Origin: an uncultured Chloroflexia bacterium
GTDB taxonomy: Bacteria > Chloroflexota > Limnocylindria > Limnocylindrales > CSP1-4
Direction: 5' to 3'
DNA: 64,000 bases
Assembly (NCBI GenBank): GCA_963720755.1
Contig: CAVRGP010000002.1
Location: forward strand, 1 to 64,000
The notes below the pieces were generated by a model that made no database searches, was not told the DNA's origin, and saw only the letters and a list, made by a program, of their open reading frames with translations. Shown piece after piece: positions 54,440 through 62,566 of this stretch. Every line of letters begins with the position of its first letter. The stretch's first letter is position 1. Made by a program: the position numbers and the translations under genes.

Positions 54440-54967
54440 TCAGTAGCGCCCCGGCTCTCGATTAGCCGAGCGGGAGACGGCGCGCACCATGCTGACGGTG
54501 GCCCCGGCACCCACCCCGACCGGCGTACCGGACGTGGAGGCGGAAGATCGTCCGAGCGTCCGTTCCGGAGACCGTTCGGTCCCGGAACTCGCGTCGGCGG
54601 ATGGGAAGTTCCTGGCGTAGCGGCGCATCCGCACCGCGAGGTAGTACTCCATGATCTGGCGAACCTGCGGTTCGCTCAGCAGCTCGTCGGCACGCAGGGC
54701 GTACTCGACGCGGGCGGTCGGGTTGGTGTTCCCGGCGGCGACGAGACCGAGGTATTGCGGCGTATCCGCATCGTCACGAAGCTCGCGCAGGCCGCGGGCC
54801 AGCTTGGTGGCAGTCCCGAGCGACGGCATCCGATCCCCGCGGATCAACCGCGAGATCGTGGAGTGGTCGACTCCGGACTGCTGGGCGAGTTGGCGCTGCG
54901 ACATCTTCTTGGCCTTGAGCTGGGCTCGCAGCCATTCGTTGAACGCTCGGCCGTTCTGCGTGGTCAT
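54440..54967 (-). CDS. XRE-family HTH transcriptional regulator
   Basis: MSQRQLA..SGV..STISRL..G.R.PS..T...LA. Confidence 0.85.
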   Translation of the reverse strand: MTTQNGRAFNEWLRAQLKAKKMSQRQLAQQSGVDHSTISRLIRGDRMPSLGTATKLARGLRELRDDADTPQYLGLVAAGNTNPTARVEYALRADELLSEPQVRQIMEYYLAVRMRRYARNFPSADASSGTERSPERTLGRSSASTSGTPVGVGAGATVSMVRAVSRSANREPGRY

Positions 54968-55175
54968 GGGTGGGATTGGGCTCCGCTGTGATCCACCATT
55001 CGGATGGGCTGTTCTCTAGGCCCACTATCGAGCGGCGACGGTGCGGTCTATATCACCCGTTCGTACCGGTCGGTCCAGGGAGCGTGGCGGTCTCGCAGAT
55101 CGGTTCGGTGGGGTTCGTGTCGGTGCGGTCTGGACCGTCGGCCTTGGGACCCCGGACTATCAGGGTAGGCTTCTG

Positions 55176-56351
55176 TCAGACCGGTGTCGGGGCCGACGAG
55201 GCGGCGGGGGGCTGGCCGATCCGGCCCATCCCGCGCGGCATCGGCGAGACGACGTAGACGATCGCGCCGAACACGATGATCGACAGCACGCTGATGACCC
55301 AGTCGAGGATCGTGATCGCGGTCGCCTCGGGCAGGGGTACGCCGTACGCCACGGTCAGGACACCGATGACGCCTGCCTGGGCGAAGCCGAGACCGGCCGG
55401 GCTGAGGGGGATGGCGGTCAGCAGCGAGCCGATGAGGGCGACGAAGACCGCCCCGGACAGACCGAGCTCGACATCCGGGAACCCGAGGGCGAGGACGACG
55501 ATGTACAGACGCAGCGCCTCGGTCATCCAGATCAGGACCGTGACCGTCGCCAGCATCGGCAGGTGGCGGATGCCGACCCCACCGAAGACGCCCTGCTCGA
55601 ACCGCTCGTACAACTCGTGGATCCTGGGCGGGAGCGGCAACCGATCGATGATCCGCCGACCGAAGTTGCGCATCGTGAACAAGCCGACGGCGGCCACGAC
55701 GACGACCACGATACCGACGATGAAGATGACCTTGATCGCTTCAGGCATGCCGCTCCGGAAGCTCCAGAAGCCGGCGGCCAGGCCAAGGATGGCGATGGCG
55801 AAGATGTCGAGGATGCGTTCGATGAAGACGGTCCCGAAGGTCCGGCTCAGCGAGGCCACGCTGTTCATCTTGAGCAGGTAGGCACGGTAGACGTCGCCGA
55901 GCTTGGCCGGGACGACGCAATTGACGAACCAGGAGATGTACAGGATCTCGGTCGAGCCGCGAACGGGGATCTCGAAACCGGACGCCTCGAGGAGCCGCTT
56001 CCAGCGATAGCCACGCAACGGGAAGCCGAGGTAGAACACGATGAACGCGAGCAGGACCAGGGCCGGGTTGGCCTGGAGGATGAGATCCGGGACGGCGGAC
56101 AACCGCTCGCGGTTGAGGTACAGGAAGAAGGCGATGATCGCGAGCGGAACGACGATCGACAGGATCGTCCGGGGCTGGCGCAGGCGATGACCGAGCGAGA
56201 GCGGCGCGGCCTCGTCCGGCTCGTGCTCGAGGGCATCGATCAGGTTATCTGGCTCGTTGAGCGGAAGGGCGGCATCCATCGGCCCAGACCCTACCGGACC
56301 GCCCGCCCCCTCGGCCATCGAACGATGGTCCTGTCCCTCCGGGCCGGTCAC
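55176..56351 (-). CDS. Lysylphosphatidylglycerol-synthase TM / AglD2-like flippase domain protein
   Basis: RGYRW..LL, N.VVPAKLGD.YR, ER..D, P.SPAGLG. Confidence 0.8.
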   Translation of the reverse strand: MTGPEGQDHRSMAEGAGGPVGSGPMDAALPLNEPDNLIDALEHEPDEAAPLSLGHRLRQPRTILSIVVPLAIIAFFLYLNRERLSAVPDLILQANPALVLLAFIVFYLGFPLRGYRWKRLLEASGFEIPVRGSTEILYISWFVNCVVPAKLGDVYRAYLLKMNSVASLSRTFGTVFIERILDIFAIAILGLAAGFWSFRSGMPEAIKVIFIVGIVVVVVAAVGLFTMRNFGRRIIDRLPLPPRIHELYERFEQGVFGGVGIRHLPMLATVTVLIWMTEALRLYIVVLALGFPDVELGLSGAVFVALIGSLLTAIPLSPAGLGFAQAGVIGVLTVAYGVPLPEATAITILDWVISVLSIIVFGAIVYVVSPMPRGMGRIGQPPAASSAPTPV

Positions 56352-57028
56352 GGCCTGACCCGGTCGTTGCCCCGCAACCGATTGATCCCCTTGGCCAGCG
56401 GCGTCCAGAGCCGAACGAAATAGGTCGCCCTGCCCGGGACGATCTCGGCAGTGGCCAGGGCGGCGAGCAGACCGGCCGGCGTGGACGGATCCCCGTCGAG
56501 CGCCGTGTAGGCGACGCCGACCTCCATCACCGAGTGGGCGTCGGAGACCGAGACGCCGGGCCGACCCTGCTCGATCGCGAAGGTGGCGGCATCCTCGTTG
56601 CCATGCCCGACGACGCGGGCGTTGTAGGTCTCGATCCAGTCCACGTGCGGCGCGAGGCTGGCCATCGCGGCATCGCGGAGGAGCGAGCCGCGCATCCGGT
56701 CGAACGGGTGCGGGATGCCGACCAGGCCTCCCTGTTCACGAGCCGCCGCGATCGTATCCATCGCGGACAGGCCCGGCGGGATCGCCCGCTCGAGGAAGAC
56801 GCAGATGAGGTCGCCGTCACTGGTCTTCACTTCTTCGCCGATGATCACCGTCAGCCCCGCGGGAGCGAGATCCCGGGCTTCGAGTGCGATGTCGATCCGA
56901 TCGTGATCGGTGATCGCAAGGTGGGTCAGCCCGCGGACGCTCGCCGCCTTGACGATGTCCCCGGGCGCCGACAGACAGTCGAAGCTCCCTCGACTGTGAC
57001 AGTGCAGATCGATGAACGCGCGCGTCAC
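56348..57028 (-). CDS. PHP domain metal-dependent phosphoesterase
   Basis: DLHCHS, AITDHD, GEE, PHP, E.YN, SDAH. Confidence 0.88.
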   Translation of the reverse strand: MTRAFIDLHCHSRGSFDCLSAPGDIVKAASVRGLTHLAITDHDRIDIALEARDLAPAGLTVIIGEEVKTSDGDLICVFLERAIPPGLSAMDTIAAAREQGGLVGIPHPFDRMRGSLLRDAAMASLAPHVDWIETYNARVVGHGNEDAATFAIEQGRPGVSVSDAHSVMEVGVAYTALDGDPSTPAGLLAALATAEIVPGRATYFVRLWTPLAKGINRLRGNDRVRP

Positions 57029-57254
57029 GTGGGTCGACCAGCGGCGGCTCCATCGTCGAGCGACGGGGCACCTACGGCGCTGCGCCTTGCGGTGCCCGTC
57101 TGCTCGGCGCTGCTGCCGCCGGACCACCGTGAAGTGAGCGTCCGAGAGTAGGAGCGGGTGGCGGGCCGGCCGGCGGGCGGCTGGATGCCGTGAGGCGCAG
57201 CGCCGTAGGCATCCAGGAGTCCGCCGGCCGGCCCGACGCCAGCGGTCACGACCA
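57029..57254. repeat. REP-like palindromic doublet element A
   Basis: Perfect 17-bp IR CCTACGGCGCTGCGCCT (57071-57087) / AGGCGCAGCGCCGTAGG (57193-57209), each nested in a longer hairpin. Confidence 0.75.
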
Positions 57255-58253
57255 TCAGATCGTCTGGACCAGGGATTTCTTGAAGAAGTCGAAGTGCTCC
57301 AGGGCCAGACCGGTGCCCAGGGCGACGCAGCTGAGCGGGTTCTCCGCGACGTGGCAGGGGACGCCGGTCACCTGGGTGAGCAGCTTGTCGATGTTGCGCA
57401 AGAGGGCGCCGCCGCCGGACATGACCATGCCCTTGTCGATGATGTCCGACGACAGTTCCGGGGGTGTCTGCTCGAGCACGGCCCGGACCGCCGACACGAG
57501 CTGCTGGAGTGGGGCTTCGATGGCCTCCATCACCTCGCTGCTGGTGATCGGGATCGTCCGCGGCAACCCGGCGATCAGGTCGCGGCCGCGGACCTCCATC
57601 GTGAGCTCCCGCTCGAGCGGCAGGGCGGTCCCGATCTCCATCTTGACCTCTTCCGCCGTCCGCTCGCCGATCATCAGGTTGTACTTCTTGCGGATGTACG
57701 TGGCGATCGCATCGTCGAAACGGTTGCCCCCGACGCGGAGGCTGTGCGACACGACGATCCCGCCGAGGGCGATGACCGCGATCTCGCTCGTCCCGCCGCC
57801 GATATCGATGATCATGTTGCCGGACGGCCCGCTGATCGGCACGTTGGCGCCGATGGCGGCGGCCAGCGGCTCCTCGATGAGGTAGGCCTCCTTGGCACCG
57901 GCCTTGAGCGCCGCGTCCCGGACGGCCCGCTTCTCGACGCTGGTCACCCCGGCCGGGACGGAGATCATGACCTCCGGCTTGCCGAACCCGATGGGGCCGC
58001 GACGGACCTTGCCGATGAAGTGGCTGAGCATCGCCTCGGTGATGACGTAGTCGGCGATGACGCCGTCCTTCATCGGGCGGATGGCGTGGATATTGCCGGG
58101 CGTTCGCCCGATCATCTCGCGGGCTTCGTCGCCCACCGCGACGATCCGGTTGTCATCGGAGACGGCGACCACGCTGGGTTCCGTGATGACGATGCCCTTG
58201 CCCTTGACGTAGACGAGGACGTTGGCGGTCCCGAGGTCGATACCGATCTTCAT
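57255..58253 (-). CDS. mreB: Rod shape-determining actin MreB/Mbl
   Basis: [39 protein letters not shown]. Confidence 0.95.
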
Positions 58254-59596
58254 GAGGGGTCGTCTGCTGTCCCTTCCGCGCTGCGCGAGATGCTGGCTCC
58301 GATGTCGAGGAACTTACGCTCGATGTTCTCATAGCCCCGGTGAACGTGGTGTGCACCGTGGATGGTGGTCGTGCCTCGAGCCGCCAGGGCCGCGAGCATG
58401 AGCGACGCGCCGGCTCGCAGGTCACCGATCTCGACCTCGGCACCGACCAGGTCGGCCGGGCCCGTGATCGTGGCGTGATGGGTGTCGACCTGCTTGACCT
58501 TCGCGCCCATTCGCCGGATCTCGCTCATCCACTCGAGACGATCCTCGAAGATCGCCTCGTGGACGCGCGATGTGCCCTTCGCCTGGGTCAGCAACACCGC
58601 GGTCGGTGGCTGGAGGTCGGTGGCCAGCCCCGGGTAGGGCGCCGTCTCGATGTCACAGGCCGTGTACCCGCCGGCGTGGAGCGCCGACCCATCGACATCG
58701 ATCGTGTCGCGGCCGCAGGTGACGTCGACGCCGACGTTGATCATGACTTCGACGAACGTGGACAGGTGGTCGCACGGCGCCCCCTCCAGGGTCACGCGAC
58801 CGCCGGTCACGGCCGCAGCGATGGCGAACGTGCCGGCCTCGATCCGATCGGGGATCACCCGGTGCTCCGCGCCGCGCAGGCGTTTTCGGCCGTCGATCTC
58901 GATCGTGTCCGGGGCCGTCCGCTCGATCGCCGCGCCCATCTTCTGCAGGAATTCGATGAGGTCGTCGACCTCCGGCTCCTGGGCCGCCGGCCGGATGACG
59001 GTGTGGCCGTCGGCGAGGGTCGCTGCGAGCATCGCGTTCTCCGTCCCCATCACGGACACGAACGGGAAGGTGACCTCACCGCCGCGCAACCGTCCCGGCG
59101 ACGTCGCGAAGTAGTAGCCGTTCCGGTAGTCGATCGATGCACCGAGGGCTCGCATCGCCTCGACGTGGAGATCGACCGGGCGGCGTCCGATCCGGTCGCC
59201 ACCCGGGTTGCTGATGATGACCCGACCGAACCGGGCCAGGAGCGGGCCGAGCAGGATGAAGCTGGCGCGCATGCGGGCCGCGGCCTCGAGCGGCACGAAC
59301 AGCCACTCGACGTCACCCGACGCGATCTCGTAGATGTTGGCGGCGGGATGCTCGACCACGACCCCCAGATCGCGCAGGGTATCGGTCATGACCCGCACAT
59401 CCTCGATCTCGGGCACGTTGGTCAGCCGGCAGCGCTCGCCGGTCAGCGTCGCAGCGGCCATCATCTTGAGCGCCGCATTCTTGGCACCGCTGATCGTGAC
59501 CGTGCCGTTCAGCGGCCGACCGCCCTCGATCCGGAAGACCTCACGGGCCACCGGTTCCGGGTGGTATTCCCAGTGGAATGGCCGGACGCCTGTCAT
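58250..59596 (-). CDS. murA: UDP-N-acetylglucosamine 1-carboxyvinyltransferase
   Basis: SGAKNA, MRAS, PGGD.IG.RP.DLH, SV..TEN, EPEV.DL, DRIEAGT, DLRAG, RGYE. Confidence 0.95.
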
Positions 59597-59602
59597 CCGC
59601 CG

Positions 59603-60034
59603 CTACCCGTGGCGCCGCGGACCCTCGCGGTGGCGGCGCTCCGCGACGCGGATCCGCAGGAGGGCCTGCTGAAGAGACGCCCGCGCGGCGGCAAGGTCGA
59701 CCGCATCGGTCTGCGCAGCGCCCTCGAGCGTCCGCTCTGCTTCACGCCTGGCTTCGAGGGCTTTCTCGAGGTCGATCTCGCTGGCCATGTCCGCGGTCTC
59801 GGCCATCACGACGACGCGGTCCGGTCGGACCTGGAGGAAGCCCCCGACGATCGCGAACGATTCCTCAAGGCCGTCCTTCCGGATGCGCAACTCCCCCACC
59901 CCGAGCATCGACACCAATGGCGCGTGGTGCGGCAGCACCCCGAGCTCACCCTCGACGCCCGGCAATTGGACGCTGTCCACCGAATCCGAGTAGGCCAGAC
60001 GCTCCGGGGTCACGATCTCCAGCAAGAGTGGCAT
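59603..60034 (-). CDS. atpC: ATP synthase F1 epsilon
   Basis: LEIVTPER, GELGVLP.HAP, GGF, ID...A..A. Confidence 0.95.
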   Translation of the reverse strand: MPLLLEIVTPERLAYSDSVDSVQLPGVEGELGVLPHHAPLVSMLGVGELRIRKDGLEESFAIVGGFLQVRPDRVVVMAETADMASEIDLEKALEARREAERTLEGAAQTDAVDLAAARASLQQALLRIRVAERRHREGPRRHG

Positions 60035-60036
60035 CA

Positions 60037-60266
60037 GGGAATCCTAAACGCAGCGGCGGGCAGCCACCGATCTGCGCCCCCTACGGCGCTGCGCCTGACG
60101 GGGGCGCGCCTCGGCGCCTGCCCGCCGCTGCGGGAGCTTGCTGTCACATAGGTGCTTCCGGGGAGATTGGGGGCGTGCGCCGACGCCGGCCGGCGCCCGG
60201 CAGCCCGAGCGTGAGGCGCCGCGCCGTAGCGAGCGGCAGCCGGGTGGCGGCCGGCGACTGCGGTCC
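60037..60266. repeat. REP-like palindromic doublet element B (same family as A)
   Basis: CTACGGCGCTGCGCCT (60081-60096) / AGGCGCCGCGCCGTAG (60214-60229), nested hairpins. Confidence 0.75.

Positions 60267-62566
<2,300 letters not shown>

Follow-up and report, generated by a model that had tools for sequence, protein, structure and literature searches.

The stretch of DNA analysed here (the window) comprises 64,000 nucleotides (nt), positions 1 to 64,000 of the forward strand of contig CAVRGP010000002.1 (assembly GCA_963720755.1), from an uncultured Chloroflexia bacterium of the Limnocylindrales (CSP1-4). On its minus strand the gene order is atpA-atpG-atpD-[insert B]-atpC-murA-mreB-[insert A]-PHP, followed by an LPG_synthase-like membrane gene, and the two inserts, together with the small open reading frames (ORFs) that bridge them, are the subject of this analysis. 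Pfam matches in the window include MreB_Mbl, EPSP_synthase (murA type), ATP-synt_DE, the C-terminal part of F1 beta, PHP/PHP_C and LPG_synthase_TM. All four genes that flank the inserts (i.e., atpD, atpC, mreB and PHP) are co-directional, and the gene order and overlaps suggest that mreB-PHP and atpD-atpC each form one operon. The mreB gene (57255..58253, minus strand; 332 amino acids (aa); MreB_Mbl, E = 8.6e-141) ends with TGA at 57257-57255. The PHP-domain gene downstream of it (56348..57028, minus strand; Pfam PHP and PHP_C) likely starts at GTG 57028-57026, because the resulting 226-aa product matches the Pfam PHP domain from residue 7 onwards and because an ATG or GTG is found at the aligned position in relatives, nearly always then followed by A (ATGA/GTGA). 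No Shine-Dalgarno motif was found near the PHP start. In the other pair, atpD (F1 beta; 60267..61680, minus strand) was recognized from its ORFs and a Pfam match to the C-terminal part and ends with TGA at 60269-60267, and atpC (F1 epsilon, 143 aa; 59603..60034, minus strand; Pfam ATP-synt_DE_N and ATP-synt_DE) has an AGGA 9 nt 5' of its ATG.

Insert A, between mreB and the PHP gene, is spanned exactly by relay ORF A (ORF76; 57025..57255, minus strand; 76 aa). The ATG of this ORF (57255-57253) and the mreB TGA have one A in common, giving TGATG, and its TGA (57027-57025) overlaps the PHP GTG, giving GTGA. Within the insert is a perfect 17-bp inverted repeat with 105 nt between its arms (57071..57087 and 57193..57209). 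Each arm forms the apical loop of its own long hairpin, and the predicted stems are at 57042-57072/57091-57121 and 57154-57189/57208-57243. The hairpin adjoining mreB (A1; 57152..57248, minus strand) was identified by a covariance-model match (E = 7.8e-6), the inverted repeat and its fold; its tip (57193..57209) is in the sense of the genes, reads CUACGGCGCUGCGCCUCAC in the mRNA and is translated as YGAAPH. The hairpin adjoining PHP (A2; 57035..57128, plus strand), identified by a covariance-model match (E = 3.0e-6) and the inverted repeat, is the same element inverted to the genes, and its tip (57071..57087) is translated as RRSAVG. The RNA fold predicted for insert A has an energy of -145.9 kcal/mol (z = -5.69), none of 200 shuffles folded as well, and relay ORF A folds at -0.60 kcal/mol per nt. 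An initial annotation of this DNA had described the exactly spanning 76-aa ORF with its TGATG and GTGA overlaps, as well as the perfect repeat whose arms lie in separate hairpins and read as YGAAPH and RRSAVG, and our analyses confirmed all of these features.

A genome-wide search for the repeat revealed a second hairpin doublet, absent from the initial annotation, between atpD and atpC. Its double overlap and reading frame match those of insert A: the bridging ORF, relay ORF B (ORF78; 60034..60270, minus strand; 78 aa), starts with a GTG on the atpD stop (GTGA) and ends with a TGA on the atpC ATG (TGATG). The two tips are inverted and 117 nt apart. Hairpin B1, which adjoins atpD (60173..60266, minus strand; covariance-model match with E = 8.4e-5, and fold), has its tip in the sense of the genes (YGAAPH), and hairpin B2, which adjoins atpC (60044..60137, plus strand; covariance-model match with E = 1.3e-7), is inverted (RRSAVG). 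The order YGAAPH...RRSAVG and the frame relative to the tips are therefore identical in relay ORFs A and B. The stems of insert B differ from those of insert A yet still pair, and its fold has a z of -3.58. Hairpin B2 is ~80% identical to the single hairpin found at atpD|atpC of a relative (G010), where it has the opposite orientation.

Each insert thus consists of two ~95-nt hairpins with a conserved 18-nt tip and stems that vary but keep pairing. The conserved tip, CUACGGCGCUGCGCCUAAC, is predicted to form a 4-bp mini-stem and a triloop above an internal loop. It holds a 5-bp palindrome (GGCGC-N-GCGCC) with an unpaired GTAG at one end, while the conserved unit is the ~95-nt hairpin. In an alignment of 19 hairpin copies, 15 of the 20 predicted pairs were changed on both sides. 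The apical mini-stem in the diverged mreB|PHP hairpins of two relatives (G016 and G084; L043 and L077) is GCCG/CGGC rather than GGCG/CGCC, i.e., both sides were changed and pairing was kept. Such changes could reflect selection on the structure, or they could instead come from correction of near-palindromes at the DNA level.

To compare the two junctions, mreB was located in 99 of 101 genomes of the genus, and the stretch from atpD to PHP was taken from about 90 of them; two metagenome-assembled genomes (MAGs) gave two contigs each, both of which were retained (G010/G010b and G059/G059b). At the same two junctions, relatives within the genus have a single ~95-nt hairpin, and the orientation of the hairpin relative to the genes varies between genomes at the same site. 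Other relatives have no insert at all. The gap between atpD and atpC was ≤10 nt in 45 of 79 sites, 14 of which had a direct TGATG overlap, and that between mreB and PHP was ≤10 nt in 13 of 67 sites, including ATGA, GTGA, TAGTG and TGATG overlaps. Given that the stop and start codons at these empty sites overlap or nearly abut, stop/start coupling was likely the ancestral state of both pairs. This is the outcome of the comparison with empty sites that the initial annotation had proposed.

Sites with a gap of at least 50 nt were taken as insert-bearing, which gave 65 sites (29 at atpD|atpC and 36 at mreB|PHP), and an ORF was regarded as bridging if it started -1 to +9 nt from the upstream stop and stopped -9 to +1 nt from the downstream start. 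Bridging ORFs were found at 45 of the 65 sites (22/29 at atpD|atpC and 23/36 at mreB|PHP). When the interiors were dinucleotide-shuffled and the phase was random, 16.5 were expected, and the highest of 200,000 simulated totals was 31. A strict double overlap occurred at 22/65 sites versus 8.3 expected, which answers the earlier proposal to test whether such overlaps are more frequent than chance. At the bridged junctions, both insert length (50-307 nt) and hairpin orientation vary widely. After spacers were clustered at 80% identity (48 clusters), 34.1 were bridged versus 11.9 expected, and bridging was found both at sites with a detectable hairpin (30/41; 10.6 expected) and at sites without one (15/24; 5.9 expected).

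The signal is mostly one of phase. The start-to-stop phase fits at 48/65 sites, compared to 10/65 and 10/65 once the length is offset by 1 or 2 nt, and 34 of the 45 sites that have both overlap motifs and a gap of at least 4 nt are in phase. Removing 1 or 2 nt midway along the spacer left a bridge in 17 of 130 cases, and reverse-complementing the interior left 26/65 sites bridged. Together, the shuffle and shift tests indicate that phase, not the scarcity of stop codons, makes up most of the signal. The frame of the tip is also consistent: the sense tip is read xGAAPx in 14 of 16 bridging ORFs, and the inverted tip is read RRSA(V/A)G in 7 of 8. It should be noted that one sense frame and two antisense frames of the canonical tip are closed by a stop codon; this restricts the choice of frame, but not fully. 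The initial annotation had named random frames in other intra-operon copies as the observation that would speak against its proposal, and the phase counts and the tip frame show that the frames are not random. In the nearest relative (G068), three separate 3-nt indels distinguish the mreB|PHP spacer from that of this genome, and the double overlap is kept. At atpD, the base before the TGA completes an ATG or GTG that overlaps the stop in 25 of 29 filled sites versus 4 of 45 empty sites, a contrast that is confounded by phylogeny.

Some atpD|atpC spacers are much shorter. Spacers of 4-22 nt in five relatives (G073, G058, G049, G048 and G014; L071, L069, L067, L122 and L106, respectively) still combine a GTGA or ATGA overlap at the atpD stop with an in-phase TGATG at atpC, giving relay ORFs of 2-8 codons. 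From their sequences, these spacers look like frame-keeping remnants of a lost insert.

The folding and position of the hairpins could also be explained if they were untranslated RNA elements of the operon, such as structures that block 3' exonucleases, RNase III sites, or partial terminators controlling the atpD:atpC and mreB:PHP ratios, and if the ORFs were by-products of GC-rich sequence that is poor in stop codons. Most hairpins begin 3-21 nt past the upstream stop, other copies lie just downstream of genes, including one between convergent genes, and the strong folding and the changes on both sides of 15/20 pairs would be expected of such elements. The location also resembles that of repetitive extragenic palindromic sequences (REPs), which are described in one study as lying mostly downstream of coding regions (PMC3733652). 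This explanation leaves the phase bias, the overlapping start at the atpD stop, the 3-nt indels of G068 and an in-frame copy within an ABC-F gene (described below) unexplained. Moreover, the orientation relative to transcription is not fixed, and an Rfam scan of 54500-61000 on both strands yielded no match at E up to 1. We therefore consider it unlikely as a full account of the inserts, but a structural role of the hairpins and a relay ORF could coexist side by side.

Instead, the comparisons favour the interpretation that ORF76 and ORF78 serve as relay ORFs, which selection has maintained so that translation of the flanking genes stays coupled despite the palindromic insert between them; we assign this interpretation a probability of roughly 0.6. 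According to this interpretation, mreB-PHP and atpD-atpC would ancestrally have been coupled via overlapping or abutting stop and start codons before a palindromic ~95-nt hairpin, here an inverted doublet, came to lie between the paired genes. Selection would then hold one frame open over the whole insert, with its start on the upstream stop and its stop on the downstream start. Ribosomes finishing mreB or atpD would start again at the overlapping ATG or GTG of the relay ORF and read across both hairpins, unwinding them as they go; at its stop codon, which overlaps the start of the next gene, they would terminate and initiate once more. Ribosomes moving over the insert would also hold the hairpins open and spare the operon a long untranslated segment, and the peptide would have no function of its own. 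Lacking a Shine-Dalgarno motif, PHP should depend on the relay. The initial annotation had proposed that the repeat is tolerated because ribosomes read through it and keep the coupling. The part of this proposal that concerns the frame is borne out by the bridging and phase counts and by the overlaps at empty sites, while the melting of the hairpins remains inferred, as do the translation of the relay ORFs and the avoidance of polarity or the coupling as the selected benefit.

Several points weigh against this interpretation. Its support is partial and comes from comparison between genomes; one RNA run gave no coverage of either element, which bears on transcription neither way. With its own AGGA, atpC may depend less on the relay or not need it. 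Bridging ORFs are missing from 20 of the 65 insert-bearing sites, some of which may be assembly errors. In G068, the atpD|atpC spacer is 1 nt longer, and the frame runs on into atpC with no bridge. Openness by itself adds little, as 35.1 of 65 sites are expected to be open in same-length shuffles of the interiors, because stop codons are scarce at 70-77% GC; this openness is also what the by-product explanation above would predict. The PHP frame is itself open across insert A up to GTG 57127, which would give a 259-aa alternative product. Finally, tblastn was used to position the gene ends, and sites at which this failed were left out without a tally; the counts are noisy and not independent, given that they come from related metagenome assemblies with indel errors.

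A further variant gives the hairpin and the relay ORF a regulatory role. The two together would act as a translation-gated valve, in which the flux of upstream ribosomes decides whether the hairpins are melted and thereby sets the amount of the low-stoichiometry downstream product (epsilon versus beta; PHP versus MreB) and the cutting or termination of the transcript; the copy in the ABC-F gene might tie such a device to a translation factor. We regard this variant as speculative and quite improbable.

The peptides encoded by the relay ORFs are not conserved. Both ORFs have proper start and stop codons, and YGAAPH...RRSAVG occurs in the same order in both products (BLASTP E = 0.003 in a single comparison), as would be expected if they encoded functional small proteins that form a two-member paralogue family. 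The likeness is, however, limited to the translated DNA tips. The GC content at codon positions 1/2/3 is flat (0.71/0.75/0.78 in relay ORF A and 0.75/0.78/0.77 in relay ORF B), compared to roughly 0.65/0.45/0.9 in the genes of this genome. Substitutions at the three codon positions in eight close pairs numbered 73/92/66, with no excess at the third, no Pfam family matched either peptide, and the orthologous spacers of relatives encode unrelated peptides of 15-103 codons. That these ORFs encode functional proteins is therefore extremely improbable. The substitution pattern and the peptide comparison suggest instead that the peptide sequence is without constraint and that it is the openness and the phase of the frame that are kept.

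Outside the window, the genome has a fifth, degenerate copy of the hairpin on contig 11 (801152-801241), which is in frame within an ABC-F ATPase gene (contig 11, 799137-801518; L187:638-3016; 793-aa ORF) with uvrB downstream. The copy is at about residue 684, in the linker that joins the second ABC domain to ABC_tran_CTD, the C-terminal coiled-coil, and its tip is read as SGAAPH. ABC_tran_CTD follows in the same frame, with 25.4 bits in this genome (below the cut-off) and 37.1 bits in the relative G081 (above it). The tip was found in the ABC-F linker of 12 of the 29 genus genomes examined, always in that frame. ABC-F linkers without the tip are similar in length (aligned tails of 166-202 aa), so that a net insertion is not visible. 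The hairpin element is therefore translated in that frame within at least one real protein. The earlier suggestion that the repeat generates new peptides thus holds in a weak sense, in that one copy contributes a linker to a real ABC-F protein, and it does not hold for the relay peptides, in which no sequence constraint was detected.

The element is rare. The 16-mer of the repeat occurs 4 times in the window at ≤2 mismatches (0.14 expected; 4 occurrences were reached in 0 of 100 shuffles), and the 3.01-Mb genome has 5 matches at ≤1 mismatch, in two places plus one 1-mismatch copy. The covariance model found four clear hairpins, all in the window, and the one weak, degenerate copy, in agreement with nhmmer, and it gave 1-9 matches in 39 of the 101 genus genomes. 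Inverted doublets within 150 nt were found in this genome (G000) and in its nearest relative G068 only, among the 101 genomes. In the genome collection, the exact tip had 49 matches, 40 of which were in MAGs titled Chloroflexia, Limnocylindrales or Chloroflexota; the other 9 were single matches in unrelated taxa, which we took as chance. In a sister family of ~1.1-Mb genomes, the tip pattern was found only with 1 mismatch, at about the level of the reversed-pattern control. Further copies of the hairpin are situated just 3' of the stops of other genes in relatives: L035:10080-10174 and L037:4131-4224 in G010, L042:3818-3920 in G008, and L044:6851-6942 in G001. Among these, one follows the membrane gene downstream of PHP, one is between convergent genes, and another is found repeatedly between ORFs of ~240 aa and ~330 aa.

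The initial annotation had likened the inserts to REPs, and a mobile REP/REPIN-type doublet moved by a RAYT transposase, with the ORF incidental, would account for several of their features. The tip looks like a short GTAG-tagged palindrome, the two tips of a doublet face opposite ways, 105-117 nt apart, with their GTAG on the outer sides, which is the geometry of the head-to-head REP dimers described in the REP study (PMC3733652), and presence is polymorphic by site across the genus. The copy number is low by comparison (four clear copies and one degenerate copy in this genome), and Y1_Tnp (PF01797), the RAYT/HUH-type transposase domain that had been proposed as a check, was found neither in this genome, which is 93.6% complete, nor in any of the 101 genomes of the genus; the same search did give matches in the control genomes. 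In addition, the conserved unit is a ~95-nt hairpin rather than a sequence of 20-40 nt, and the stems differ between copies. The nearest relative of a hairpin is mostly at the same locus (17/26 at atpD|atpC and 13/16 at mreB|PHP), which indicates that descent has been mainly vertical, and spacers without the tip carry diverged versions of the hairpin, not empty targets. A REP-type origin is therefore very unlikely, and the assignment to a REP-like family was not upheld. Two related scenarios were also considered and set aside. Insertion of a small REP into older hairpins does not fit the tip-less spacers of G022, G016 and G084, which hold diverged tips in the same hairpin and not empty loops, and the case for recent mobility between loci is weak, as nearest neighbours are mostly from the same site.

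The quality of the assembly also bears on the double overlaps. In the window, atpD occupies two overlapping frames (60577-61680 and 60267-60626) instead of one, and one base at 60728 or 60730 is missing from the contigs of four public runs. The window sequence thus probably has a 1-nt insertion error near 60728-60730 that causes a frameshift, which means that the assembly carries indel errors, and many relatives had broken genes in tblastn. If the double overlaps were products of chance or of such error-prone metagenome assembly, they would not be expected in both copies in the window and again at mreB|PHP in the independent assembly of G068. The range 56933-57162, which includes part of insert A, was also matched by one public DNA-run contig with no gaps and 1 differing letter, and random indel errors would erase, not create, a phase signal over 65 sites. 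We consider an artefact highly improbable.

Parts of this arrangement have counterparts in known systems. Mycobacterial interspersed repetitive units (MIRUs) are direct, often tandem repeats of about 50-100 bp in mycobacteria and are not palindromes. Supply et al. reportedly found in 1997 that MIRU ORFs overlap both neighbouring genes. Like the inserts described here, MIRUs are intra-operon repeats between co-directional genes with a small ORF coupled by overlap, and a review describes how they insert at start codons, such that the repeat ORF becomes coupled to the gene and the effect on expression is limited (PMC12548453). The element described here differs in that it occurs in Chloroflexota and is a long hairpin, either alone or paired as an inverted doublet; the evidence for its relay ORFs is the phase statistic at 65 sites, not a repeat consensus that carries an ORF. 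Rickettsia palindromic elements (RPEs), according to a second source, are 100-150 bp long and are tolerated in frame inside genes, to which they add a peptide segment (PMC10969869). The ABC-F copy, in frame within a bona fide gene, resembles them. As reported there, RPEs encode a conserved peptide, have 44 insertions in one genome and are not described as relays between coupled genes (PMC10969869), whereas the element described here has few copies, conserves ~6 residues (xGAAPx) and makes no visible net insertion in the ABC-F gene.

The tip looks like a minimal GC-rich palindrome with an unpaired GTAG, as in GTAG-tagged REPs, and the element shares with them inverted dimers with the tags outside and a usual position shortly 3' of coding regions. 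The REP study reports that REPs form inverted dimers, are sometimes found inside genes, and occur within larger palindromes in Thermomicrobium roseum, which also belongs to the Chloroflexi (PMC3733652). REPs differ in being 20-40 bp long, in high copy number and, for those with GTAG, in being linked to RAYT, in contrast to the 5 copies of ~95-nt hairpins and the lack of Y1 in 101 genomes reported here; copy number, unit size and the missing transposase are the reasons that the element is not classified as a REP. As for coupling itself, one paper states that genes must overlap or lie at very short distances to be translationally coupled (PMC10666635), and a review describes a short upstream ORF from which ribosomes are delivered to the gene that follows (PMC12548453). 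Each end of a relay ORF has a stop/start overlap of the -1 or -4 nt type, as in termination-reinitiation coupling. Compared to such delivery ORFs, the relay ORFs have 76-78 codons, span two stable hairpins and are coupled at both ends between ordinary genes. What appears to be new is the combination of a palindromic body, as in REPs and RPEs, with a doubly coupled relay ORF, as in MIRUs, in Chloroflexota. A literature search for palindromic intergenic repeats in Limnocylindria gave no paper on Limnocylindria among the matches listed, which is a weak basis for claiming that none is in print.

If the relay interpretation is correct, the two inserts would be a natural case outside mycobacteria in which an arbitrary frame is kept open purely to pass ribosomes over a structured insert. 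They would also indicate, by comparison between genomes, that stop/start coupling is worth restoring once it has been disrupted, and show that palindromic DNA can persist inside essential operons (i.e., ATP synthase and cell-shape genes) and a coding gene. In genome annotation, gene callers will report such ORFs as hypothetical proteins or let adjacent genes run into them. The PHP gene is an example, as its frame is open over 57028-57127 and a caller may extend it into hairpin A2, overlapping relay ORF A.

The phase test could find more relay cases, and there is at least one further candidate in this genome. A crude scan of the genome for strict double-overlap ORFs of 15-130 codons, placed after 2273 coding-like ORF ends, returned 39 rows (~35 distinct ORFs). 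Several of them are presumably real small genes, such as those for ribosomal proteins and a NuoK-like protein, and relay ORFs A and B have the strongest folding per nt among them. The further candidate, a 102-codon ORF with a strict double overlap on contig 6 (140664-140972; L188:1165-1473, minus strand), lies between an aminotransferase-like 406-aa ORF and a 286-aa ORF. It spans a different long palindrome with GTAGGCGGC, whose arms are at L188:1225-1241/1375-1391 and 1267-1284/1332-1349, and it folds at -0.55 kcal/mol per nt.

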